Shown: in pieces, positions 1,843 through 27,390 of the stretch
Position numbering within the stretch: the first letter of the stretch is position 1
How the letters are laid out: each line of letters begins with the position of its first letter
DNA from: Escherichia coli
GTDB lineage: Bacteria; Pseudomonadota; Gammaproteobacteria; Enterobacterales; Enterobacteriaceae
Strand: one strand, 5' to 3'
Assembly (NCBI RefSeq): GCF_044324875.1
Contig: NZ_CP172185.1
DNA length: 64,000 nt
Notes under the pieces: model-generated
Databases searched by the model: none
What the model saw: the letters and a program-made list of their open reading frames with translations, nothing else
What the model was told of the DNA's origin: nothing
Made by a program: the position numbers and the translations under genes

Positions 1843-3387
1843 ATGGATGTCATTAAAAAGAAACATTGGTGGCAAAGCGACGCGCTGAAATGGTCAGTGT
1901 TAGGTCTGCTCGGCCTGCTGGTGGGTTACCTTGTTGTTTTAATGTACGCACAAGGGGAATACCTGTTCGCCATTACCACGCTGATATTGAGTTCAGCGGG
2001 GCTGTATATTTTCGCCAATCGTAAAGCCTACGCCTGGCGCTATGTTTACCCGGGAATGGCTGGAATGGGATTATTCGTCCTCTTCCCTTTGGTCTGCACC
2101 ATCGCCATTGCCTTCACCAACTACAGCAGCACTAACCAGCTGACTTTTGAACGTGCGCAGGAAGTGTTGTTAGATCGCTCCTGGCAAGCAGGCAAAACCT
2201 ATAATTTTGGTCTTTACCCGGCGGGCGATGAGTGGCAACTGGCGCTCAGCGACGGCGAAACCGGCAAAAATTACCTCTCCGACGCGTTTAAATTTGGCGG
2301 CGAGCAAAAACTGCAACTGAAAGAAACGACCGCCCAGCCCGAAGGCGAACGCGCGAATCTACGCGTGATTACCCAGAACCGTCAGGCGCTGAGTGACATT
2401 ACCGCCATTCTGCCGGATGGCAACAAAGTGATGATGAGCTCCCTGCGCCAGTTTTCTGGCACGCAGCCGCTCTACACACTCGACGGTGACGGCACGTTGA
2501 CGAATAATCAGAGCGGCGTGAAATATCGTCCGAATAACCAAATTGGCTTTTACCAGTCCATTACCGCCGACGGCAACTGGGGCGATGAAAAGCTAAGCCC
2601 CGGTTACACCGTGACCACTGGCTGGAAAAACTTTACCCGCGTCTTCACCGACGAAGGCATTCAGAAACCGTTCCTCGCCATTTTCGTCTGGACCGTGGTG
2701 TTCTCGCTGATCACTGTCTTTTTAACGGTGGCGGTCGGCATGGTTCTGGCGTGTCTGGTGCAGTGGGAAGCGTTGCGCGGCAAAGCGGTCTATCGCGTCC
2801 TGCTGATTCTGCCCTACGCGGTGCCATCGTTCATTTCAATCTTGATTTTCAAAGGGTTGTTTAACCAGAGCTTCGGTGAGATCAACATGATGTTGAGCGC
2901 GCTGTTTGGCGTGAAGCCCGCCTGGTTCAGCGATCCGACCACCGCCCGAACGATGCTGATTATCGTCAATACCTGGCTGGGTTATCCGTACATGATGATC
3001 CTCTGCATGGGCTTGCTGAAAGCGATTCCGGACGATTTGTATGAAGCCTCAGCAATGGATGGCGCAGGTCCGTTCCAGAACTTCTTTAAGATTACGCTGC
3101 CGCTGCTGATTAAACCGCTGACGCCGCTGATGATCGCCAGCTTCGCCTTTAACTTTAACAACTTCGTGCTGATTCAACTGTTAACCAACGGCGGCCCGGA
3201 TCGTCTTGGCACGACCACGCCAGCCGGTTATACCGACCTGCTTGTTAACTACACCTACCGCATCGCTTTTGAAGGCGGCGGGGGTCAGGACTTCGGTCTG
3301 GCGGCAGCAATTGCCACGCTGATCTTCCTGCTGGTGGGTGCGCTGGCGATAGTGAACCTGAAAGCCACGCGAATGAAGTTTGATTAA
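1843..3387 (+). CDS. malF: Maltose ABC transporter permease MalF (514 aa)
   Basis: ORF contains [26 protein letters not shown]...; start placed at the MDVIKKK methionine (ORF track begins 5 codons upstream). Confidence 0.95.
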
Positions 3388-3401
3388 GGGAGATAACAAA
3401 A

Positions 3402-11687: not shown

Positions 11688-13037
11688 ATGTCTGAAATTG
11701 TTGTCTCCAAATTTGGCGGTACCAGCGTAGCTGATTTTGACGCCATGAACCGCAGCGCTGATATTGTGCTTTCTGATGCCAACGTACGTTTAGTTGTTCT
11801 CTCGGCTTCTGCTGGTATCACTAATCTGCTGGTCGCTTTAGCTGAAGGACTGGAACCTGGCGAGCGATTCGAAAAACTCGACGCAATCCGCAATATCCAG
11901 TTTGCCATTCTGGAACGTCTGCGTTACCCGAACGTTATCCGTGAAGAGATTGAACGTCTGCTGGAGAACATTACTGTTCTGGCAGAAGCGGCGGCGCTGG
12001 CAACGTCTCCGGCGCTGACAGATGAACTGGTCAGCCACGGCGAGCTGATGTCGACCCTGCTGTTTGTCGAAATCCTGCGCGAACGCGATGTTCAGGCACA
12101 GTGGTTTGATGTACGTAAAGTGATGCGTACCAACGACCGATTTGGTCGTGCAGAGCCAGATGTAGCCGCGCTGGCGGAACTGGCCGCGCTGCAGCTGCTC
12201 CCACGCCTCAATGAAGGCTTAGTGATCACCCAGGGATTTATCGGTAGCGAAAATAAAGGTCGGACAACGACGCTTGGCCGTGGAGGCAGCGATTATACGG
12301 CAGCCTTGCTGGCGGAGGCTTTACACGCATCTCGTGTTGATATCTGGACCGACGTCCCGGGCATCTACACCACCGATCCACGCGTGGTTTCCGCAGCAAA
12401 ACGCATTGATGAAATCGCGTTTGCCGAAGCGGCAGAGATGGCAACTTTTGGTGCAAAAGTACTGCATCCGGCAACGTTGCTACCCGCAGTACGTAGCGAT
12501 ATCCCGGTCTTTGTTGGCTCCAGCAAAGACCCACGCGCAGGTGGTACGCTGGTGTGCAATAAAACTGAAAATCCGCCGCTATTCCGCGCGCTGGCGCTTC
12601 GTCGCAATCAGACTCTGCTCACTTTGCACAGCCTGAATATGCTGCATTCTCGCGGTTTCCTCGCGGAAGTTTTCGGCATCCTCGCGCGGCATAATATTTC
12701 GGTAGACTTAATCACCACGTCAGAAGTGAGCGTGGCATTAACCCTTGATACCACCGGTTCAACCTCCACTGGCGATACCTTGCTGACGCAATCTCTGCTG
12801 ATGGAGCTGTCTGCACTATGCCGGGTAGAAGTGGAGGAAGGTCTGGCGCTGGTCGCGTTGATTGGCAATGACCTGTCAAAAGCCTGCGGCGTTGGCAAAG
12901 AGGTATTCGGCGTACTGGAACCGTTCAACATTCGCATGATTTGTTACGGCGCATCCAGCCATAACCTGTGCTTCCTGGTGCCCGGCGAAGATGCCGAGCA
13001 GGTGGTGCAAAAACTGCATTTTAATTTGTTTGAGTAA
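11688..13037 (+). CDS. lysC: Lysine-sensitive aspartokinase III LysC (449 aa)
   Basis: Translation MSEIVVSKFGGTSVADFDAMNRSADIVLSDANVRLVVLSASAGITNLL... matches LysC. Confidence 0.98.
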   Translation: MSEIVVSKFGGTSVADFDAMNRSADIVLSDANVRLVVLSASAGITNLLVALAEGLEPGERFEKLDAIRNIQFAILERLRYPNVIREEIERLLENITVLAEAAALATSPALTDELVSHGELMSTLLFVEILRERDVQAQWFDVRKVMRTNDRFGRAEPDVAALAELAALQLLPRLNEGLVITQGFIGSENKGRTTTLGRGGSDYTAALLAEALHASRVDIWTDVPGIYTTDPRVVSAAKRIDEIAFAEAAEMATFGAKVLHPATLLPAVRSDIPVFVGSSKDPRAGGTLVCNKTENPPLFRALALRRNQTLLTLHSLNMLHSRGFLAEVFGILARHNISVDLITTSEVSVALTLDTTGSTSTGDTLLTQSLLMELSALCRVEVEEGLALVALIGNDLSKACGVGKEVFGVLEPFNIRMICYGASSHNLCFLVPGEDAEQVVQKLHFNLFE

Positions 13038-13046
13038 ACACAGTAT

Positions 13047-13090
13047 GGCCCGGAAGACATTATTTCGGGCCGTATTGTTTTTCTTGTCAT
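13047..13090 (+). terminator. Probable rho-independent terminator downstream of lysC
   Basis: GGCCCGGAAGACATTATTTCGGGCC hairpin followed by a T-rich tract (GTATTGTTTTTCTTG). Confidence 0.55.
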
Positions 13091-13289
13091 TATGCTTATC
13101 AATAAACGAGCCTGTACTCTGTTAACCAGCGTCTTTATCGGAGAATAATTGCCTTTAATTTTTTATCTGCATCTCTAACTAATTAGAGAAAGAGATAAAT
13201 AGTTAAGAGAAGGCAAAATGAATATTATCAGTTCTGCTCGCAAACGAATTCCCGTACACTGAACTCTCTGGCTCACTGAGGGCACCATC

Positions 13290-13562
13290 ATGGCACTCCC
13301 CCGTATTACCCAAAAAGAGATGACTGAACGCGAGCAGCGTGAACTAAAAACATTGCTGGATCGCGCACGGATTGCGCATGGTCGCGTGTTGACTAATTCG
13401 GAAACCAACAGCATTAAAAAAGAGTACATCGATAAGCTGATGGTTGAGCGTGAAGCAGCAGCAAAAAAAGCCCGCCAATTGAAGAAAAAGCAGGCTTATA
13501 AACCGGATCCTGAAGCGTCATTTAGCTGGTCAGCAAATACGTCGACGCGCGGCAGGCGCTGA
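13290..13562 (+). CDS. yjbD: YjbD, DUF3811-family small basic protein (90 aa)
   Basis: ORF MALPRITQKEMTEREQRELKTLLDRARIAHGRVLTNSETNSIKKEYIDKLMV...; position between lysC and rluF as in K-12. Confidence 0.8.
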   Translation: MALPRITQKEMTEREQRELKTLLDRARIAHGRVLTNSETNSIKKEYIDKLMVEREAAAKKARQLKKKQAYKPDPEASFSWSANTSTRGRR

Positions 13563-14435
13563 TTAACGCCCCTTCTTTTTACGCCCCGGCGAGGTAAAAC
13601 GCTTACCGTTGGACGCCGGGCGACCGCCTTTTTCCGCCGTTTTTTCCATCTTAACGACTGGACGTTTGATGCCCGCCGTTTTCGGTTTGGCCTTCGTTTT
13701 AGGTTTTGCCTCGGAAGAGGAATTTTCGATGAGCTTAAAGAGGTCGATTAACTCATCGTCAGTTAAATCGCGCCACTCACCCAGCGGAATGCCGCTTAAG
13801 CTGACGTTCATAATGCGCGTACGTTCCAGCTTTTTCACTTCGTAACCAAAGTGCTCGCACATGCGCCGGATCTGACGGTTCAGCCCCTGCACCAGGGTAA
13901 TGCGGAAGACAAACGGCGCTTCTTTTTTGACTTTGCACTTTTTCGTCACCGTCCCGAGGATCGGCACCCCCGCCCCCATACCACGAATAAATTCATCGGT
14001 AATCGGTTTATCGACCGTCACCAGATACTCTTTCTCATGATCGTTACCCGCACGGAGGATCTTATTCACTAGATCGCCGTGATTGGTGAGGAAAATCAGC
14101 CCCTGGGAGTCTTTATCCAGGCGGCCAATCGGGAACACGCGTTTGCTGTGGTTAACGAAATCGACAATGTTATCGCGCTCGCCATCTTCGGTGGTGCTGA
14201 CAATACCGACGGGCTTGTTCAGGGCGATAAGTACCAAATCTTCGGCTTCCCGAGGCTCAATCAACTGACCGTTTACTTTCACAACGTCGCCGGGTTTCAC
14301 CTGATCGCCAATGGTGGCTCGCTTGCCATTAAGGAACACATTGCCTTGCTCGATATAGCGATCCGCTTCGCGGCGTGAGCAAATTCCGCTTTCGCTGATG
14401 TATTTATTTAAACGGACTGATGAGTCGGGCAGCAT
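13563..14435 (-). CDS. rluF: 23S rRNA pseudouridine(2604) synthase RluF (290 aa)
   Basis: S4 domain plus RsuA-type pseudouridine synthase motifs; translation [40 protein letters not shown]... with Lys-rich C-terminal tail. Confidence 0.93.
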
Positions 14436-14782
14436 AAATTCTCCTGTAAAACGCGGAATATACCGTACCTCTTAGCGGGGAAAAACAGGGTTATGCGGCA
14501 ACGTCGAAATTAAATGTGATCTGCCACGCCTTTTATCACAAAAGTGTCTCCGGAAGTACGATGCAAATTTGCCTGGCAAAATAAGGATAATCAACATATT
14601 ACGAATCGCTGCACACCTGTGCTGATGACTACTACGCAGAGAAACAAATGTGCAAGAGAAAGCGCTATTTCTCCCCATGCAAAGAGTGAAAAATCGCTTT
14701 GAAAGGCCCTCATGATGGGGTTATATCAGATCAAGCGGTGAGAAAGCGTATTTGCACAAATGTGCAGAACCAGGAGGCGGCA

Positions 14783-15730
14783 ATGGAAAACAGTGACGAT
14801 ATCCGTTTGATTGTGAAGATTGCCCAACTCTATTACGAACAGGATATGACGCAGGCGCAAATCGCGCGCGAACTGGGTATTTACCGCACCACCATCAGCC
14901 GCTTGCTTAAACGAGGCCGCGATCAGGGAATTGTCACCATCGCCATCAACTATGACTACAACGAAAATCTCTGGCTGGAGCAGCAACTGAAGCAAAAGTT
15001 TGGCCTGAAAGACGTTGTGGTGGTGTCGGGAAATGATGAGGATGAAGAGACTCAACTGGCGATGATGGGGTTACACGGCGCGCAACTGCTGGATCGCTTG
15101 CTGGAACCTGGCGATATTGTCGGTTTTTCCTGGGGTCGCGCGGTGAGCGCACTGGTTGAAAACTTGCCGCAGGCGGGGCAATCGCGGCAGTTAATCTGCG
15201 TACCAATTATTGGCGGACCGTCCGGTAAACTCGAAAGCCGCTATCATGTAAACACATTAACCTACAGCGCGGCAGCGAAGCTGAAAGGGGAATCGCATCT
15301 CGCGGATTTTCCGGCTCTGCTGGATAACCCATTAATTCGTAATGGGATCATGCAGTCTCAGCACTTTAAAACCATCTCTGCCTACTGGGATAATCTGGAT
15401 GTCGCCCTGGTGGGAATTGGCTCACCGGCCATTCGCGACGGCGCTAACTGGCATGCGTTTTATGGTGGTGAAGAGAGTGACGACCTGAATGCCCGCCAGG
15501 TTGCTGGCGATATTTGCTCGCGCTTTTTTGATATTCACGGCGCAATGGTTGAAACGAATATGAGTGAAAAAACACTCTCTATCGAAATGAATAAATTAAA
15601 GCAGGCACGATATTCCATTGGCATTGCCATGAGTGAAGAAAAATACAGCGGAATAGTTGGTGCACTGCGTGGAAAATATATTAATTGTCTGGTAACGAAT
15701 AGCAGCACAGCTGAACTATTACTGAAATAA
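14783..15730 (+). CDS. sorC: SorC-family transcriptional regulator of the L-sorbose operon (315 aa)
   Basis: N-terminal HTH (DIRLIVKIAQLYYEQDMTQAQIARELGIYRTTISRLLKRGRDQGIV) plus sugar-binding domain; first gene of a sorCDFBAME-like cluster; start set at MENSDD (ORF track starts 28 codons upstream). Confidence 0.85.
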   Translation: MENSDDIRLIVKIAQLYYEQDMTQAQIARELGIYRTTISRLLKRGRDQGIVTIAINYDYNENLWLEQQLKQKFGLKDVVVVSGNDEDEETQLAMMGLHGAQLLDRLLEPGDIVGFSWGRAVSALVENLPQAGQSRQLICVPIIGGPSGKLESRYHVNTLTYSAAAKLKGESHLADFPALLDNPLIRNGIMQSQHFKTISAYWDNLDVALVGIGSPAIRDGANWHAFYGGEESDDLNARQVAGDICSRFFDIHGAMVETNMSEKTLSIEMNKLKQARYSIGIAMSEEKYSGIVGALRGKYINCLVTNSSTAELLLK

Positions 15731-15799
15731 AAATCTTCCCGATGTTTACCGTAATAAAAATTACGGCGGGTCCCTATTATCTAAAAACAGGAGTCTGTT

Positions 15800-16606
15800 A
15801 TGCAAACGTGGTTAAATTTGCAGGATAAAATCATTATCGTCACCGGCGGCGCATCCGGTATAGGTCTGGCGATTGTAGAGGAATTATTAGCACAAGGCGC
15901 GAATGTACAGATGGTCGATATTCACGGTGGCGATGGACAATATGAAGGTCATAAAGGCTATCAGTTTTGGCCGACCGATATTTCCAGCGCCAAAGAGGTA
16001 AATCATACGGTAGCAGAAATTATCCAGCGTTTTGGTCGCATCGACGGTCTGGTTAACAACGCCGGGGTCAATTTTCCGCGTCTGCTGGTCGATGAGAAAG
16101 CGCCTGCCGGGCAGTATGAACTCAACGAAGCTGCATTCGAAAAAATGGTCAATATCAACCAGAAAGGCGTTTTTCTGATGTCGCAGGCGGTGGCGCGACA
16201 GATGGTCAAACAACACGATGGCGTGATTGTGAATGTTTCCTCAGAAAGTGGGCTGGAAGGCTCAGAAGGCCAAAGCTGTTACGCCGCGACCAAAGCCGCG
16301 CTTAATAGCTTCACGCGATCCTGGTCGAAAGAATTGGGTAAACACGGTATCCGTGTAGTCGGTATCGCGCCGGGGATTCTGGAAAAAACCGGGCTACGCA
16401 CGCCGGAATATGAAGAAGCGCTGGCGTGGACGCGCAATATCACCGTCGAGCAGCTGCGTGAAGGCTATACCAAAAACGCCATTCCTATTGGGCGCGCCGG
16501 AAGATTAGCAGAAGTCGCTGATTTTGTTTGTTATCTGCTGTCTGAACGCGCCAGCTACATCACCGGAGTAACCACTAACATTGCGGGCGGCAAAACGCGC
16601 GGATAA
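15800..16606 (+). CDS. sorD: Short-chain dehydrogenase/reductase, sorbitol(glucitol)-6-phosphate dehydrogenase SorD-like (268 aa)
   Basis: Rossmann motif TGGASGIGLA near the N-terminus and YxxxK catalytic motif (YAATKAA); operon position. Confidence 0.85.
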   Translation: MQTWLNLQDKIIIVTGGASGIGLAIVEELLAQGANVQMVDIHGGDGQYEGHKGYQFWPTDISSAKEVNHTVAEIIQRFGRIDGLVNNAGVNFPRLLVDEKAPAGQYELNEAAFEKMVNINQKGVFLMSQAVARQMVKQHDGVIVNVSSESGLEGSEGQSCYAATKAALNSFTRSWSKELGKHGIRVVGIAPGILEKTGLRTPEYEEALAWTRNITVEQLREGYTKNAIPIGRAGRLAEVADFVCYLLSERASYITGVTTNIAGGKTRG

Positions 16607-16615
16607 GGAGGCTTT

Positions 16616-17023
16616 ATGGTCAACGCCATTTTTTGTGCCCACGGCAAATTAGCCTGCGCCATGCTGGAATCGGTTCAGATGGTTTACGGCAACGCCAATG
16701 TTGAAGCCGTTGAATTTGTACCCGGCGAGAACGCCGGAGACATTGTGGCAAAGCTGGAGAAGTTAGTGAGCATTCACAATCATGACGAGTGGCTAATCGC
16801 CGTGGATTTACAGTGCGGCAGCCCGTGGAATGCGGCAGCGATGCTTGCGATGCGCAATCCTCGCCTGCGGGTAATCAGCGGCCTTTCTCTGCCGCTGGCG
16901 CTCGAACTGGTTGATAACCAGGACAGCATGAATGTTGATGAACTGTGTGAACACCTGACGCAAATCGCAAAGCAATCCTGCGTCGTCTGGAGACAGGTGG
17001 CAACGGCAGAGGAGGATTTCTGA
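16616..17023 (+). CDS. sorF: PTS mannose/sorbose-family EIIA component (135 aa)
   Basis: Small EIIA-Man-like protein (MVNAIFCAHGKLACAMLESVQMVYG...), immediately followed by EIIB. Confidence 0.85.
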   Translation: MVNAIFCAHGKLACAMLESVQMVYGNANVEAVEFVPGENAGDIVAKLEKLVSIHNHDEWLIAVDLQCGSPWNAAAMLAMRNPRLRVISGLSLPLALELVDNQDSMNVDELCEHLTQIAKQSCVVWRQVATAEEDF

Positions 17024-17517
17024 TGAACATTACGCTCGCCCGCATTGATGACCGCCTGATCCACGGCCAGGTCACTACCGTCTGGTCTAAAGTGGCTAAC
17101 GCCCAGCGCATTATTATCTGCAATGACGAAGTTTATAACGATGAAGTTCGCCGGACATTATTGCGTCAGGCTGCGCCACCGGGAATGAAGGTTAACGTGG
17201 TCAATATTGAAAAAGCCGTCGCGGTTTATCACAACCCGCAATATCAGGACGAAACCGTTTTTTATCTTTTCACTCGCCCACAGGATGCCTTAGCGATGGT
17301 TCGCCAGGGGGTAAAAATAGGCACCCTGAATATTGGCGGCATGGCCTGGCGGCCCGGTAAAAAACAGTTAACCAAAGCGGTTTCATTAGATGATGATGAT
17401 ATTAACGCATTTCATGAGTTAAATAATCTTGGCGTCATACTGGATTTACGCGTCGTAGCGTCAGATCCCTCAATCAATATTATCGACAAAATAAACGAAC
17501 AGTTAATCGCAAATTAA
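17023..17517 (+). CDS. sorB: PTS mannose/sorbose-family EIIB component (164 aa)
   Basis: MNITLARIDDRLIHGQV... with the phosphorylatable His of EIIB-Man; start overlaps the sorF stop. Confidence 0.88.
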   Translation: MNITLARIDDRLIHGQVTTVWSKVANAQRIIICNDEVYNDEVRRTLLRQAAPPGMKVNVVNIEKAVAVYHNPQYQDETVFYLFTRPQDALAMVRQGVKIGTLNIGGMAWRPGKKQLTKAVSLDDDDINAFHELNNLGVILDLRVVASDPSINIIDKINEQLIAN

Positions 17518-17582
17518 ATAATAGCGCCTGTGTACATATGCTTTAACAGGCAGGGATGACGACACTTAAAAGGTGACAAATC

Positions 17583-18380
17583 ATGGAAATAAGTACCCTA
17601 CAAATCATTGCTATATTTCTTTTTTCCTGTATTGCCGGAATGGGCAGCGTGCTGGATGAATTTCAGACTCATCGCCCGTTAATTGCCTGTACGGTGATTG
17701 GTTTAATTCTCGGTGATTTAAAAACCGGAATAATACTCGGTGGTACGCTGGAATTGATAGCTCTCGGCTGGATGAACGTCGGCGCGGCGCAATCTCCGGA
17801 TTCTGCACTCGCCAGCATAATCTCCGCCATTCTTGTTATCGTTGGTCAGCAAAGCATCGCCACCGGAATCGCCATCGCGTTGCCTGTGGCTGCGGCAGGC
17901 CAGGTGCTGACGGTGTTTGCCCGTACCATCACCGTAGTGTTCCAGCACGCGGCGGATAAAGCAGCGGAAGAGGCGCGGTTTCGCACTCTCGATATTCTGC
18001 ATGTCTCCGCACTTGGCGTGCAGGCGCTGCGCGTTGCTATTCCGGCACTGATTGTCTCGCTGTTCGTCAGCGCCGATATGGTCAGCAATATGTTAAACGC
18101 CATTCCCGAATTTGTGACCCGAGGACTACAGATTGCTGGCGGTTTTATCGTGGTGGTCGGTTACGCCATGGTGCTACGTATGATGGGCGTGAAATATTTG
18201 ATGCCTTTCTTTTTCCTCGGTTTCCTCGCAGGTGGCTACCTCGATCTCAGTCTGCTGGCGTTCGGTGGCGTCGGCGTGATCATGGCCCTGGTCTACATCC
18301 AGCTAAATCCACAGTGGCGTAAAGCTGAACCTCAACTCCAGGCCACCACCTCCACCGCCCTTGACCAACTTGACGATTAA
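17583..18380 (+). CDS. sorA: PTS mannose/sorbose-family EIIC membrane component (265 aa)
   Basis: Hydrophobic multi-pass ORF (MEISTLQIIAIFLFSCIAGMGSVLDEF...), EIIC-Man-like. Confidence 0.88.
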   Translation: MEISTLQIIAIFLFSCIAGMGSVLDEFQTHRPLIACTVIGLILGDLKTGIILGGTLELIALGWMNVGAAQSPDSALASIISAILVIVGQQSIATGIAIALPVAAAGQVLTVFARTITVVFQHAADKAAEEARFRTLDILHVSALGVQALRVAIPALIVSLFVSADMVSNMLNAIPEFVTRGLQIAGGFIVVVGYAMVLRMMGVKYLMPFFFLGFLAGGYLDLSLLAFGGVGVIMALVYIQLNPQWRKAEPQLQATTSTALDQLDD

Positions 18381-18390
18381 CGGAGCCATC

Positions 18391-19215
18391 ATGGAACAGA
18401 GAAAAATTACACGCAGCGATCTGGTGAGCATGTTTCTGCGCTCCAACCTGCAACAGGCGTCCTTTAACTTTGAACGTATTCACGGGCTGGGTTTTTGCTA
18501 CGACATGATCCCCGCCATCAAACGACTTTACCCATTAAAAGAGGATCAGGTTGCGGCGCTCAGGCGACACCTGGTGTTCTTCAATACCACGCCAGCCGTA
18601 TGTGGCCCGGTCATCGGCGTCACTGCCGCCATGGAAGAGGCGCGAGCCAACGGCGCGGAAATTGATGACGGTACCATTAACGGCATCAAAGTCGGTCTGA
18701 TGGGACCATTGGCAGGAGTTGGCGATCCACTGGTCTGGGGAACGCTGCGCCCGATTACCGCCGCGCTCGGCGCATCTCTGGCACTTTCGGGCAACATTCT
18801 CGGCCCGCTGCTGTTTTTCTTTATTTTCAATGCGGTGCGTCTGGCGATGAAGTGGTATGGCCTACAGCTCGGCTTTCGCAAAGGGGTGAATATCGTCAGC
18901 GATATGGGCGGGAATGTGCTGCAAAAACTCACCGAAGGCGCGTCGATTCTCGGACTGTTTGTGATGGGCGTGCTGGTGACCAAATGGACGTCAATCAACG
19001 TACCGTTGGTGGTTTCACAAACGCATGCCGCCGATGGCTCCACCGTCACCATGACCGTGCAGAACATTCTCGACCAACTTTGCCCTGGTTTGCTGGCGCT
19101 CGGTCTGACGCTACTGATGGTTCGTCTGCTCAACAAAAAAATTAACCCGGTATGGCTGATTTTCGCCCTGTTTGGCTTAGGGATTATCGGCAATGCGCTG
19201 GGCTTCCTGTCCTGA
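18391..19215 (+). CDS. sorM: PTS mannose/sorbose-family EIID membrane component (274 aa)
   Basis: MEQRKITRSDLVSMFLRSNLQQASFNFERIHGLGF... typical EIID-Man N-terminus; GGAG RBS 7 nt upstream of this ATG. Confidence 0.88.
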   Translation: MEQRKITRSDLVSMFLRSNLQQASFNFERIHGLGFCYDMIPAIKRLYPLKEDQVAALRRHLVFFNTTPAVCGPVIGVTAAMEEARANGAEIDDGTINGIKVGLMGPLAGVGDPLVWGTLRPITAALGASLALSGNILGPLLFFFIFNAVRLAMKWYGLQLGFRKGVNIVSDMGGNVLQKLTEGASILGLFVMGVLVTKWTSINVPLVVSQTHAADGSTVTMTVQNILDQLCPGLLALGLTLLMVRLLNKKINPVWLIFALFGLGIIGNALGFLS

Positions 19216-19266
19216 TTCTTCGCCCCGGCACGACTGCCGGGGCCATCGCTCAACATGAGGTGGTTT

Positions 19267-20496
19267 ATGAAAACAACAGCTCTGCGTCTTTATGGTAAAC
19301 GTGATTTACGCCTGGAAACCTTTGATCTTCCTGAAATGCAGGAGGATGAAATCCTCGCGGCGGTGGTCACTGACAGCCTGTGCCTCTCTTCCTGGAAAGA
19401 GGCCAATCTGGGTGAAAACCATAAAAAAGTACCCGATGATGTGGCGACCAATCCCATCATCATCGGCCACGAATTTTGCGGCGATATTCTGGCCGTGGGT
19501 AAAAAGTGGCAGCACAAATTCCAGCCGGGTCAGCGTTATGTGATTCAGGCCAACCTGCAATTCCCTGACCGCCCGGATTGCCCCGGCTACTCCTTCCCGT
19601 GGGTAGGCGGCGAAGCGACGCATGTGGTTATTCCCAACGAGGTCATGGAACAAGATTGCCTGCTGGCATACGACGGCGAAACCTATTTTGAAGGCTCGCT
19701 GGTTGAACCGCTTTCCTGCGTGATTGGCGCGTTCAACGCCAACTATCATCTTCAGGAAGGTAGTTATAACCACACGATGGGGATTCGCCCGCAAGGGCGC
19801 ACGCTGATCCTCGGCGGCACCGGACCAATGGGACTGTTGGCGATTGATTATGCGCTGCATGGACCCATTAACCCGTCGCTGCTCGTCATTACCGATACCG
19901 ACAACGATAAATTGAGTTATGCGCGCAAGCACTATCCATCAGAATCGCAAACACTGATTCATTATCTCAATGCCACCGATGCAGCATTTGATACGTTAAT
20001 GGCGCTGAGTGGCGGTCACGGCTTCGATGATATTTTCGTCTTTGTGCCTAATGAAGGACTGGTGACTCTCGCCTCTTCCTTGCTGGCGACAGATGGTTGC
20101 CTGAATTTCTTCGCCGGACCGCAGGATAAACATTTCAGCGCGCCAATTAATTTCTACGATGTGCATTATGCATTTACCCACTACGTGGGCACGTCAGGCG
20201 GCAATACCGATGACATGCGCGCAGCAGTCAAATTGATTGAAGAGAAAAAAGTGCAGGCCGCAAAAGTGGTAACACATATTCTTGGGCTGAATGCCGCGGG
20301 CGAAACCACGCTTGAATTGCCTGCCGTCGGCGGCGGCAAAAAGCTGGTGTATACCGGGAAATACCTGCCGCTTATGTCACTCACGCAGATTCAGGATCAA
20401 GCACTGGCGGCAATTCTGGCGCGTCATCAGGGGATCTGGTCCGGTGAGGCGGAGCAATATCTGCTCACTCATGCAGAGGCAATTTCCCATGATTAA
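19267..20496 (+). CDS. sorE: L-sorbose-1-phosphate reductase SorE-like, zinc/MDR-type alcohol dehydrogenase fold (409 aa)
   Basis: Last gene of the sor cluster; MDR-family features (GHEFCGDI); start at MKTTALRL preceded by GGTGG RBS (ORF track starts 4 codons earlier). Confidence 0.8.
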   Translation: MKTTALRLYGKRDLRLETFDLPEMQEDEILAAVVTDSLCLSSWKEANLGENHKKVPDDVATNPIIIGHEFCGDILAVGKKWQHKFQPGQRYVIQANLQFPDRPDCPGYSFPWVGGEATHVVIPNEVMEQDCLLAYDGETYFEGSLVEPLSCVIGAFNANYHLQEGSYNHTMGIRPQGRTLILGGTGPMGLLAIDYALHGPINPSLLVITDTDNDKLSYARKHYPSESQTLIHYLNATDAAFDTLMALSGGHGFDDIFVFVPNEGLVTLASSLLATDGCLNFFAGPQDKHFSAPINFYDVHYAFTHYVGTSGGNTDDMRAAVKLIEEKKVQAAKVVTHILGLNAAGETTLELPAVGGGKKLVYTGKYLPLMSLTQIQDQALAAILARHQGIWSGEAEQYLLTHAEAISHD

Positions 20497-20654
20497 TCGC
20501 GCTACTTAACTCTGCATGTCGCTGGCTGGTCGCCGCGGCAACTTCGCGACCGGATGTGCGGCTGATTGCTGAAGCAGCACAATTTGCATGAGAAGGATAA
20601 AAAATATCAGCGCCTTAAGGGGCGCTCAAATTGGTGGCAAAGTACACATTGTTT

Positions 20655-20757
20655 ATGCCGGATGCGGAATGAAGCCTTATTCGGCATACATAATCTCGAA
20701 AATTCAATATATTGCAGTTATCTGGTAGGCCTGGTAAGCGTAGCGCATCAGGCAATG
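20655..20757. repeat. Two REP-type palindromic units in the sorE-pepE intergenic region
   Basis: TGCCGGATGCGGAATGAAGCCTTATTCGGCATA and GGTAGGCCTGGTAAGCGTAGCGCATCAGGCAATG resemble the REP consensus (GCCGGATG.../...GCATCAGGC). Confidence 0.75.
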
Positions 20758-20877
20758 CTGTGTTTGTCATCAGTCTCAGCGCCCGGTGCAATACGTGACA
20801 TCGTGAGCCATGTCAGTAAGTGGTTAAATTCGCAGTGGTAGCATGCCTTCCGTGATTTCTTACTAACCGGAGAAGTA

Positions 20878-21567
20878 ATGGAACTGCTTTTATTGAGTAA
20901 CTCAACGCTGCCGGGTAAAGCCTGGCTGGTACATGCACTGCCGCTAATTGCTGAACAGTTGCAGGGTCGCCGCTCAGCGGTGTTTATCCCTTTCGCTGGC
21001 GTAACGCAGACCTGGGATGATTACACAGCGAAAACGGCTGCGGTTCTCGCTCCGCTGGGTGTTTCTGTCACCGGTATTCATAGCGTTGTCGATCCCGTTG
21101 CCGCGATTGAAAATGCTGAGATCGTGATTGTCGGCGGCGGTAATACTTTCCAGTTGCTGAAACAGTGCCGCGAGCGCGGGCTGCTGGCACCAATTACTGA
21201 CGTGGTGAAACGTGGCGCGCTGTATATTGGCTGGAGCGCAGGCGCTAACCTTGCTTGCCCAACCATTCGTACCACCAACGATATGCCGATTGTCGATCCG
21301 CAAGGTTTCGATGCGCTAAATCTGTTCCCGCTGCAAATCAACCCGCACTTCACCAACGCGCTGCCGGAAGGTCATAAAGGTGAAACCCGTGAACAGCGTA
21401 TTCGCGAACTGCTGGTCGTCGCGCCAGAACTCACAATTATTGGTCTACCGGAAGGTAACTGGATCACGGTGAGTAAAGGTCACGCTACGCTGGGTGGCCC
21501 GAACACCACTTATGTGTTTAAGGCTGGTGAAGAAGCGGTTCCGCTGGAAGCGGGTCACCGTTTTTAA
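20878..21567 (+). CDS. pepE: Alpha-aspartyl dipeptidase PepE (peptidase E, S51 family; 229 aa)
   Basis: Translation [41 protein letters not shown]... matches PepE. Confidence 0.95.
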
Positions 21568-21574
21568 GTGAATT

Positions 21575-21641
21575 GCCGGATGCATGATCCGGCATCTTGT
21601 ACATAATGCCTGATGCGACGCTTTACGCGTCTTATCAGGCC
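21575..21641. repeat. REP palindromic units between convergent pepE and yjbB
   Basis: GCCGGATGCATGATCCGGCAT and GCCTGATGCGACGCTTTACGCGTCTTATCAGGCC. Confidence 0.8.
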
Positions 21642-21656
21642 TTCAGGGGCGCAGTA

Positions 21657-23288
21657 TTAATACTCGTCCCGTCCTTCATCTTCATCAGGCTGTTCCAGCA
21701 CACTGTAAGCGACTGAACAAAACAGCGAGTTCAGACGTTGCATATCTCCCAATAAGCCTAAATGTAGCGAACTGGTTTCAATACTCTGCACGTTTTGCTG
21801 ATGCAGGCGATCGACGTGGGCGTGGGAATAGCGGCGATTAAGAATGCGAAAACGATGTTTGCTGCGGCGCAAACGACGGGCGCTGGTAACATCGCCAGAG
21901 AAGAAAACCGACATTGCCAGTTTTAAATTACTGAGCAATTGCTCATAGAGCGCATCCAGTTCCTTCAAGCCATCAAGCGAAAATGCTCGCCTTGCAGCCA
22001 GCGATTTGTCGGCAATTTCACTACCCATGCGCTCGACGATATCGGAGGCCTGTTCAAGGTTTAGCGACATTTCGATGATCTCCGCCCAGCGGCGCGACTC
22101 TTCTTCTGCCAGTTCCTCTTTTGGCATTCGCGCCAGATAAAGTTTAATCGCGGTATAGAGCACGTTGATATCATCCGCCAGCTTGCGCAGCTCTTTCTCC
22201 TGCCGTGGCTCGCCGTGCATCACTTTATTCAACCCTTCCATCATCTGTTCCATGGCGTCGCCAATGCGCAGGGTTTCGCGCGCGGCGTTCGCCAGAGCAA
22301 GCGTGGGCGTATCCAGCGCGCTGACATCCAGATGTTTAGGCCGTAGCTGGGTATCCAGTTCCGGTTCATCGCGAATAATCGTTTTGCAAAACCGTGCCAT
22401 CGGGTCAACAAATGGCAGCATGACCAGGCAACGTACAAGGTTGTAGAAGACGTGGAAATAGATCACCAGTTCCGCTTTTGGCAATGACAACTTCCCCATT
22501 GTCTCTGCCAGCAAATGAACAAACGGCAGGATAATCAGGCTACCCACCAGCTTAAACAGCAGACTACCCAGCGCGACACGGCGGGCTGCGGCATTGGCGG
22601 CACTGTTGTTGAGCATCGCCAGCAGGCCGGAACCGAGGTTAGCACCAATCACCAGACAGAGCGCCACGGGGAAGGAGATAATGCCTGCAGCGGTCAGAGT
22701 CGCGGTCAGCAGTACAGCAGCAAGGCTGGAGTAGCTGATAATGGCGAACATCGCGCCAATCAGCGCATCCAGCAAAATGTCGCCAGTCAGCGAGGCAAAG
22801 ATCACCTGAACGCCGTTTGCCTGGGTGATCGGCGTTACGGCCTGCACAATCAACTCCAACGCCAGCAAAATCAACCCAAGACCAATACCGACGCGGCCCA
22901 GTTGCCCGGCGCGTGACTGTTTGCGTCCGAGGAAAAAAATCACGCCGATAAAAATAAGTAATGGTGACAGCCAGGATAAATCGAAGGTGAGAATACGCGC
23001 CATTAGCGCCGTCCCGACATCTGCACCCAGCACAATCACCAGAGCCGGTGCGAGGGCTACCAGATCCTGAGCGACGAACGAGGTCACCAGCATGGTGGTG
23101 GCATTACTGCTCTGTACCAGTGCGGTAACGCCGATCCCCGCGCAAAAGGCGAGCGGCTTTTTTTCGACGCTCCGGCTAAGGACAGTACGCAAACGCGCGC
23201 CGAAGACGCGCATTACGCCGGTTCGAACAATATGAGTCCCCCAGACCAGCAGGGCGACGGCAGAAAGCAGGTGAAGCAGCGTTAACAC
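21657..23288 (-). CDS. yjbB: YjbB, Na+/phosphate symporter (PNaS) family membrane protein with C-terminal PhoU-like domain (543 aa)
   Basis: Hydrophobic N-terminal half, charged helical C-terminal half; translation MLTLLHLLSAVALLVWGTHIVRTGVMRVFGARLRTVL... Confidence 0.9.
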   Translation of the reverse strand: MLTLLHLLSAVALLVWGTHIVRTGVMRVFGARLRTVLSRSVEKKPLAFCAGIGVTALVQSSNATTMLVTSFVAQDLVALAPALVIVLGADVGTALMARILTFDLSWLSPLLIFIGVIFFLGRKQSRAGQLGRVGIGLGLILLALELIVQAVTPITQANGVQVIFASLTGDILLDALIGAMFAIISYSSLAAVLLTATLTAAGIISFPVALCLVIGANLGSGLLAMLNNSAANAAARRVALGSLLFKLVGSLIILPFVHLLAETMGKLSLPKAELVIYFHVFYNLVRCLVMLPFVDPMARFCKTIIRDEPELDTQLRPKHLDVSALDTPTLALANAARETLRIGDAMEQMMEGLNKVMHGEPRQEKELRKLADDINVLYTAIKLYLARMPKEELAEEESRRWAEIIEMSLNLEQASDIVERMGSEIADKSLAARRAFSLDGLKELDALYEQLLSNLKLAMSVFFSGDVTSARRLRRSKHRFRILNRRYSHAHVDRLHQQNVQSIETSSLHLGLLGDMQRLNSLFCSVAYSVLEQPDEDEGRDEY

Positions 23289-23507
23289 GAGTTCAGGTTC
23301 TCCTTATCGTTATATGTTCCTGAAGCAATTGAATGACCAAAGGACCGGAAACACGCTGACTGGCATCTTTACTGTGCCTTTTGACCTTCGTTTTTCCGGC
23401 TAAGATTATTCCAGCCTGATTCCAGTATAAGTGTTTCATATTAATAAAGAGACAGGGCACTCATTGAGCGCCCTGTTTGTTGTAAGGAAAAGTGACAGAT
23501 TTGTGAA

Positions 23508-27191
<3,684 letters not shown>

Positions 27192-27390
27192 ACTTGCTCC
27201 CGACACGCTCAACCCAGATTTAATAAAAATTCAACAAACCATACTGGCATAAACGCATCTGTGGTAAAAGCGACCACCACGCAACATGAGATTTGTTCAA
27301 CATTAACTCATCGGATCAGTTCAGCAACTATTGCATTAGCTAACAATAAAAATGAAAATGATTTCCACGATACAGAAAAAGGAGACTGTC

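Follow-up and report, generated by a model that had tools for sequence, protein, structure and literature searches.

Two core genes that are neighbors in Escherichia coli K-12, rluF and pepE, are separated by a seven-gene block in the window analyzed here (the whole 64,000-nucleotide stretch of an E. coli chromosome), and this raises the question of what the block encodes and whether it was gained by the strains that carry it or lost by K-12. The interval at 14436-20877 is exactly the gap between the start codons of the divergent rluF and pepE and measures 6,442 bp, in agreement with a first-pass annotation that had placed an accessory L-sorbose operon of about 6.4 kb at this site. We are confident that the block is the E. 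coli chromosomal operon sorCDFBAME for the L-sorbose phosphotransferase system (PTS), orthologous to the characterized operon of Klebsiella pneumoniae, and that it is an old, vertically inherited locus whose empty site in K-12 is a derived deletion.

The seven sor genes and their expected function

The seven open reading frames (ORFs) all lie on the plus strand, contain no internal stops, and are each preceded by a Shine-Dalgarno-like sequence. Family scans and the ORF layout returned the co-directional order C-D-F-B-A-M-E and the families that the first-pass annotation had given. The products are a SorC-family regulator with helix-turn-helix and sugar-binding domains (sorC, 14783-15730; PF04198, 270 bits), a D-glucitol-6-phosphate dehydrogenase of the short-chain dehydrogenase/reductase type (sorD, 15800-16606; NF004817, 501 bits, cut-off 304, and PF00106), the mannose-family PTS subunits EIIA (sorF, 16616-17023; TIGR00824, 147.7 bits, cut-off 98, and PF03610), EIIB-Sor (sorB, 17023-17517; TIGR00854), EIIC (sorA, 17583-18380; TIGR00822, 423 bits, cut-off 340, and PF03609), and EIID (sorM, 18391-19215; TIGR00828, 472 bits, and PF03613), and an L-sorbose-1-phosphate reductase of the medium-chain dehydrogenase/reductase type with ADH_N and ADH_zinc_N domains (sorE, 19267-20496; PF08240 above its cut-off). 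All four subunit models scored above their curated cut-offs. The starts of sorC, sorM, and sorE were taken from the RefSeq annotation of orthologous loci and differ from those of the longest ORFs. Several junctions are tight: the sorB start and the sorF stop have 1 nt in common, and gaps of 9 and 10 nt precede sorF and sorM, respectively.

The products proved to be Sor orthologues, as had been proposed, rather than members of another PTS family. SorC is 87.0% identical to K. pneumoniae SorC (Protein Data Bank (PDB) code 2W48) over all 315 amino acids, and SorB is 86.9% identical to K. pneumoniae IIB-Sor (1NRZ) over 160 amino acids (305 bits). The seven proteins together are 71-96% identical to those of a K. 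pneumoniae-labelled locus and of K. oxytoca-group loci; SorF is the most diverged subunit (71-80%), SorD is 87-91% identical to its Klebsiella counterparts, and SorE is 85-86% identical to them and 99% identical to a RefSeq protein named "sorE: L-sorbose 1-phosphate reductase". The K. pneumoniae operon, described by Sprenger & Lengeler in 1984 and in later work, as cited in PMC2831201 and PMC13410766, agrees with the block in the content, order, and orientation of its seven genes, and it lies in the same chromosomal neighborhood, between rluF and yjbB-metH.

As the first-pass annotation had said, the operon itself is already known biology. It is a textbook example of an accessory locus for catabolism, and recent papers treat its distribution, induction, and fitness effects in E. 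coli. Cloning of c4981-c4987 from E. coli CFT073 into DH5alpha conferred growth on L-sorbose (PMC2831201). The reverse primer printed in that study matches the window exactly at 20497-20526, and the other primer corresponds to 14436-14464 save for a T missing in print, with 24 nt matching exactly at 14441-14464; the functionally tested CFT073 amplicon therefore corresponds to window positions 14436-20526. Enteroaggregative E. coli 042 has the same operon (Ec042-4384-4390), and MG1655 is without it (PMC2808357). In locus and structure, the operons of CFT073, of strain 042, and of sequence type (ST) 131 and ST648 strains (PMC2831201, PMC2808357, PMC12817954) are as in the window. Between them, PMC12817954 (2025) and PMC13410766 (2026) describe how the operon is distributed on a genome scale, its response to sorbose, and the phenotypes of knock-outs and knock-ins; the 2025 study reports that sorbose induces the operon and gives both kinds of phenotype, and PMC13410766 summarizes the pathway from L-sorbose-1-phosphate through D-glucitol-6-phosphate to D-fructose-6-phosphate. 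By analogy, SorF (IIA), SorB (IIB), SorA (IIC), and SorM (IID) of the window would take up L-sorbose and phosphorylate it to L-sorbose-1-phosphate, SorE would reduce this to D-glucitol-6-phosphate, and SorD would oxidize the latter to D-fructose-6-phosphate, which would enter glycolysis. SorC, the product of the first gene, would control the operon at the rluF-sorC spacer, probably through two GCACA-N2-TGTGC palindromes. Growth on and induction by L-sorbose have been shown for orthologous E. coli blocks (PMC2831201, PMC12817954).

We consider it unlikely that the operon is structurally intact yet phenotypically silent in this strain. In favor of silence, a survey cited in PMC2831201 found no user of sorbose among 26 Shigella strains, operon-carrying Shigella genomes exist, and such carriers are reported not to use the sugar. 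In addition, no genome in a set of 5,426 complete E. coli genomes exceeds 99.1-99.2% identity to the window, so that its lineage is unsampled in that collection. However, no damage was seen in any of the seven ORFs, in their ribosome-binding sites, or in the conserved blocks of the control region, and close relatives differ from the window by point substitutions only.

Gain or loss at the rluF-pepE site

The sor block was found in 2,865 of the 5,426 complete E. coli genomes (53%), always on the chromosome and in single copy, which bears out its description as accessory in E. coli. In MG1655, rluF and pepE are adjacent and divergent, as stated in the first-pass annotation, with a spacer of 211 bp and no sor block. 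The full K-12-type spacer of 211 bp was seen in 2,557 genomes, with an identity of at least 99% in almost every case, and the two states together account for 5,422 of the 5,426 genomes. PMC12817954 puts the frequency of the operon above 86% in every phylogroup other than A (9.6%) and B1 (12.1%).

In a strict alignment, what the window shares with K-12 is confined to the two ends: 35 bp at the left (14436-14470) and, at the right, 90 bp (20788-20877, the pepE upstream region on the plus strand, with 95.6% identity, which forms the right edge of the variable segment). The variable segment is thus 14471-20787 (6,317 bp) in the window versus 86 bp in K-12. The first-pass annotation had referred to "insertion endpoints" here: the edges could indeed be set by alignment to MG1655, but the evidence favors an ancestral locus deleted in K-12 over an insertion.

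The window shows approximately 97-99% nucleotide identity to sor-positive E. coli genomes, and its best identity to any complete genome is 99.1-99.2%, in the block as well as in yjbB-metH. This ceiling indicates that the strain is certainly not K-12, as had been stated, and that it belongs to a lineage unsampled in the collection or to Shigella, a name under which the collection holds no genomes. The same ceiling applied over 13400-27300 as a whole, which is unusual for a collection of 5,426 genomes.

Two genomes carry insertion sequences in this region. E. coli 98232, the top full-length match to an 8.3-kb query, has IS1A inside sorC (positions 2631-3398 of locus L003), and E. coli EC21 has an IS1397-family element in the region; the operon is therefore being inactivated in some lineages.

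To follow the locus beyond E. coli, one genome per species was scanned with SorE, which gave 196 stretches encoding a relative, of which 80 loci were kept (K. pneumoniae sensu stricto was not among these 80). The enterobacterial loci share yjbD, rluF in reverse orientation, sorCDFBAME, and then pepE and/or yjbB and metH. This arrangement occurs in at least eight genera, so that the site is not empty outside E. coli as would be expected for an island. It was seen in Escherichia whittamii, Escherichia isolate MOD1-EC7003, and a divergent isolate labelled E. coli; in Pseudocitrobacter (two loci), Citrobacter (seven loci with both flanks), Klebsiella (five species), and Raoultella (four loci); and in three Enterobacter-labelled isolates, Cedecea, Enterobacteriaceae isolate RIT693, and one metagenome-assembled Enterobacteriaceae genome. 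In E. albertii, where the contig breaks off inside sorA, the pepE-yjbB-metH side is preserved, and a K. pneumoniae-labelled assembly, found through the search with SdhL (see below), has the same arrangement with many frameshifts.

Species by species, the nucleotide identity of the sor genes to the window tracks that of the flanking rluF, pepE, yjbB, and metH. The values for sor and flanks were 90-95% and 91-93% for E. whittamii, 78-86% and 81-85% for Citrobacter, and 74-85% and 79-85% for K. michiganensis, respectively. The GC content of the block (0.510, compared with 0.508 (left flank) and 0.546) shows no shift, there is no tRNA gene, and the longest direct repeat flanking the block measures 7 bp. 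Thus, none of the hallmarks of an island that were looked for at the block, namely, mobility genes, borders formed by tRNA genes or repeats, and atypical composition, was present.

The K-12 spacer itself retains both ends of the sor-positive interval. In a sensitive alignment, positions 1-66 of the K-12 spacer showed homology to that end of the rluF-sorC spacer which adjoins rluF, and positions ~105-211 showed homology to the region upstream of pepE. These ends fit the Citrobacter and Klebsiella versions (…GATAAAAAATA.TC.TG..CGAA…, …CTTTCCAGAA…) no worse than the version of sor-positive E. coli. The 86-bp K-12 core had at one point been taken for an unrelated replacement, a view revised when the cross-genus alignments gave homology at both ends; in local alignment to the whole sor block, the score of this core (23) fell within the range for shuffled sequences (mean 20, maximum 32). 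The near invariance of the sor-negative spacer across 2,557 genomes makes the deletion haplotype look young. The most parsimonious account is that the locus is ancestral to these enterobacteria and that one young haplotype, in the A/B1 lineage, has it deleted; the K-12 spacer is best read as a deletion scar, and K-12 most likely lacks sor because its lineage deleted an old enterobacterial locus.

Several observations weigh against this account or parts of it. Approximately 38 bp of the K-12 spacer (positions 67-104 of the spacer in L001/L086; TATTTGTTATTTCCATTGGCTTGAATTCGTTACCTGCT…) match none of the sor-positive loci compared, so the deletion junction is not fully reconstructed. In one Pseudocitrobacter locus (L005), the sor genes are 87-93.5% identical to the window at the nucleotide level versus 81-82% for pepE and yjbB, which hints at some exchange of the operon between genera. 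A conserved position could, in principle, also arise by transfer followed by homologous recombination through the flanks. On the functional side, the Shigella carriers that do not use sorbose mean that intact ORFs do not prove a phenotype; NCBIfam has no SorE-specific model, PF00107 scored just under its gathering cut-off, and the putative SorE assignment follows from orthology. As for control, a simple sigma-70 consensus scan of the rluF-sorC spacer found no promoter and did not flag the conserved GGGGTTATATCAGATCA block described below, so that the placement of the sor promoter follows from conservation, and conservation is likewise what points to the candidate operators. Separately, a second Pseudocitrobacter locus (L007) gave a similar picture to L005 at the protein level.

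That the block is instead a horizontally acquired island, which entered the rluF-pepE site of some E. coli lineages and for which the K-12 site is the ancestral empty state, seems to us quite improbable. Its presence in just over half of the complete genomes, the unmatched stretch of the K-12 spacer, and the Pseudocitrobacter sor genes, which are nearer to Escherichia than are that genus's pepE and yjbB, would fit such an origin. An island would not, however, be expected to occupy one site in at least eight enterobacterial genera with a divergence matching that of its flanks, to lack an integrase, tRNA, direct repeat, and GC shift, or to leave an empty site whose two ends are homologous to the ends of the occupied interval. 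Moreover, the almost invariant sor-negative spacer looks young, E. whittamii, E. albertii, and Escherichia MOD1-EC7003 carry the operon, and only phylogroups A and B1 are mostly without it. A role of the block in another mannose-family PTS pathway (mannose, N-acetylgalactosamine, or fructoselysine-type) rather than in sorbose catabolism is scarcely credible: the NCBIfam and Pfam subunit models are family level ("mannose/fructose/sorbose") and do not resolve the substrate, and SorC also matches DeoR and LsrR models below their cut-offs, but the close identity of SorC and SorB to the solved K. pneumoniae sorbose proteins (the next-best EIIB for SorB, mannose IIB, scored 171 bits), the sub-cut-off scores of the AgaF, AgaW, AgaE, and ManX models, and the growth on sorbose conferred by the orthologous CFT073 block refute it as far as sequence evidence allows.

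What is new here is the direction of the polymorphism, its exact boundaries, a previously unannotated sdhL scar and a bacterial interspersed mosaic element (BIME), and candidate operators. Loss in K-12 and phylogroups A and B1, and not gain by pathogens, bears on recent papers that treat sor as a pathogen-enriched marker, one of which leaves open how its resistant strains "acquired" the operon.

A remnant of sdhL behind sorE

The gap between sorE and pepE measures 381 bp and holds a dead remnant of the gene sdhL, which is shikimate-dehydrogenase-like, followed by the BIME; the first-pass annotation, correct as to the seven genes, had missed both. The remnant was delimited at 20489-20600 on the plus strand by alignment to the undamaged genes of E. 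coli PEC403 and of E. whittamii. It consists of 112 nt, the first 58 and the last 54 of the gene, joined at 20546/20547 by a frameshifting internal deletion of 701 bp, and there is an 8-nt overlap between its ATG and the sorE stop. Two nonsense codons are also present, CAA to TAA at codon 7 (20507-20509) and CGA to TGA at 20589-20591. The window sdhL thus does not encode the full-length protein of ~270 amino acids represented by NF009202 and HI0607. The remnant is unannotated in the four sor-positive RefSeq loci checked.

An intact sdhL of 813 nt follows sorE in E. whittamii, in two other Escherichia loci that are not of K-12 type, and in some E. coli (PEC403, IMT16316). The start of this intact gene has the same 8-nt overlap with the sorE stop, and its RefSeq annotation is "shikimate 5-dehydrogenase". 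The intact SdhL scored 464 bits with NF009202 (cut-off 306) and matched Haemophilus influenzae SdhL HI0607 (PDB code 1NPY) over its full length (E = 2.5e-111). The Klebsiella-labelled loci examined likewise have an intact sdhL after sorE, whereas the window has the remnant only. In total, sdhL lies directly 3' of sorE in ~26 enterobacterial species loci (most of the loci examined) and is intact in 177 of the 5,426 E. coli genomes. The same deletion junction and the TAA codon were found in strains 536 (phylogroup B2), O157:H7 (phylogroup E), TUM1886, and 98232, which indicates one old deletion event. The additional nonsense codon of the window is common to the TUM1886 and 98232 alleles; compared with other sor-positive E. 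coli operons, the window allele is distinguished by this one extra sdhL nonsense codon, and it is identical to that of no complete genome (best 99.1%).

These results indicate that the operon originally had an eighth, translationally coupled gene, sdhL, of which most sor-positive E. coli retain a remnant. In PMC12817954, sdhL was noted beside sor in ST648, where it was expressed and differentially regulated, in that strain only, in the sorbose experiments, and ST648 served there to illustrate ST-specific insertions around the operon. Our comparative data reverse that reading: the intact sdhL called an ST648-specific insertion is the ancestral state, and the other sor-positive E. coli bear its scar.

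In contrast to the synteny and the deletion, a functional link of sdhL to sorbose metabolism is speculative. The gene is dispensable for growth on sorbose because the CFT073 amplicon was without it. Outside the Enterobacteriaceae, sdhL occurs in the contexts gpsA-cysE-sdhL-eamA (apparent Pasteurellaceae contigs) and moaC-sdhL (Lautropia), and the loci of SdhL proteins with 65-69% identity in other taxa contained no sor genes; these unrelated contexts make a role in sorbose metabolism only a weak hypothesis. We know of no established physiological substrate of SdhL. A reductase that converts 5-ketofructose to L-sorbose belongs to the same superfamily (7COK, E = 2e-16; PMC7954740), which is at most suggestive. 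By analogy with these distantly related 5-ketofructose reductases of the shikimate dehydrogenase family, sdhL might have a real sorbose-related role, such as the interconversion of L-sorbose and 5-keto-D-fructose, a step that most E. coli would then have lost by the single old 701-bp deletion; we regard this as possible but rather doubtful.

Control region, BIME, and flanking genes

The rluF-sorC intergenic control region (14436-14782, plus strand, 347 bp) was aligned across 12 loci from Escherichia, Pseudocitrobacter, Citrobacter, Klebsiella, Raoultella, Cedecea, and one unclassified Enterobacteriaceae isolate, with a mean column identity of 77%. Its first 35 bp (14436-14470) are near-identical to K-12, and weaker homology extends to ~14502. 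Two palindromes stand out. The distal one, GCACACCTGTGC at 14611-14622, has GCACA and GTGC invariant in the 12 loci, and the proximal one, GCACAAATGTGC at 14754-14765, lies inside an invariant TTGCACAAATGTGCAG, ~18 bp before the sorC start. No other GCACA-N2-TGTGC palindrome occurs in the 64-kb window, where ~0.06 would be expected by chance (an estimate from motif length); the two are upstream of sorC, 143 bp apart, and invariant in 12 of 12 aligned loci. The stretch between them contains a half-site, CAAATGTGCAA, that is invariant, and GGGGTTATATCAGATCA (14717-14733, plus strand), which is near-invariant and has an invariant GGTTATATCAGAT core. We infer that the two palindromes are candidate SorC operators, a concrete pair that can now be named, and that the TATAT-containing block lies near the promoter as a candidate -10 and transcription start region. 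A further conserved block, TGTGAT-N14-ATCACA at 14515-14540, may be a regulator site: its TGTGATC and the adjacent ACAAAAGTG are invariant in the 12 loci, and its right half, ATCACA, varies to ACACAA or GGACAA outside Escherichia and Pseudocitrobacter.

At the other end of the operon, the BIME occupies 20657-20754 and comprises a repetitive extragenic palindromic (REP) sequence (20657-20689), a linker AATTCAATATATTGCA (20701-20716), and an inverted REP (20725-20754). The segment 20640-20775 matches 22-50 places per E. coli genome, so that the element shows the inverted REP pair, the dispersed multi-copy occurrence, and the intergenic position of a BIME; compared with the BIME and REP elements of E. 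coli, its left REP is degenerate (…GGAATGAAGCCTTATTCGGCATAC). From the linker motif, we take it to be a candidate for the BIME subtype that binds integration host factor. The BIME is present in E. whittamii and absent from the sdhL-positive E. coli haplotype. A GC-rich hairpin at 20609-20626 (AGCGCC-TTAAGG-GGCGCT) is a weak terminator candidate on the minus strand, the only strand on which it has a T-run; terminator-like sites were not enriched over shuffled sequences. An ORF of 91 amino acids at 20566-20841 was rejected as a gene because it matched no NCBIfam or Pfam family and overlaps the sdhL remnant and the BIME. A permissive Rfam scan of 13000-22000 gave no hits inside the sor block and returned only a sub-threshold naRNA4 match and a chance match to RNase P; the former is a REP-derived naRNA4-like element between pepE and yjbB (21574-21641; 47.6 bits, against a gathering score of 59.5).

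The pepE side of the operon is a variable spot. After sdhL, loci L008-L032 and L047 (Citrobacter, Klebsiella, Cedecea, and others) have ~0.1 to 8 kb of other DNA before pepE or yjbB, and no pepE match was found on that side of the operon in Cedecea, K. indica, RIT693, or the K. pneumoniae-labelled assembly.

The flanking core genes of the window are rluF (13563-14435, minus strand, divergent from sorC), which encodes a 23S rRNA pseudouridine synthase (NF007784 equivalog, 607 bits, full length) and is annotated as such at orthologous loci too, and pepE (20878-21567, plus strand), which encodes dipeptidase E (NF003642, 355 bits). The gene metH lies at 23508-27212, ~3 kb from the sor block; the first-pass annotation had pointed to a classical mapping of sor near metH, and in a literature search no title or abstract dealt directly with this mapping. 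On the far side of rluF, the stop codons of yjbD and rluF abut (13562/13563) in the window and in strain JS01, and MG1655 has 132 bp more between them, possibly a REP-type insertion.

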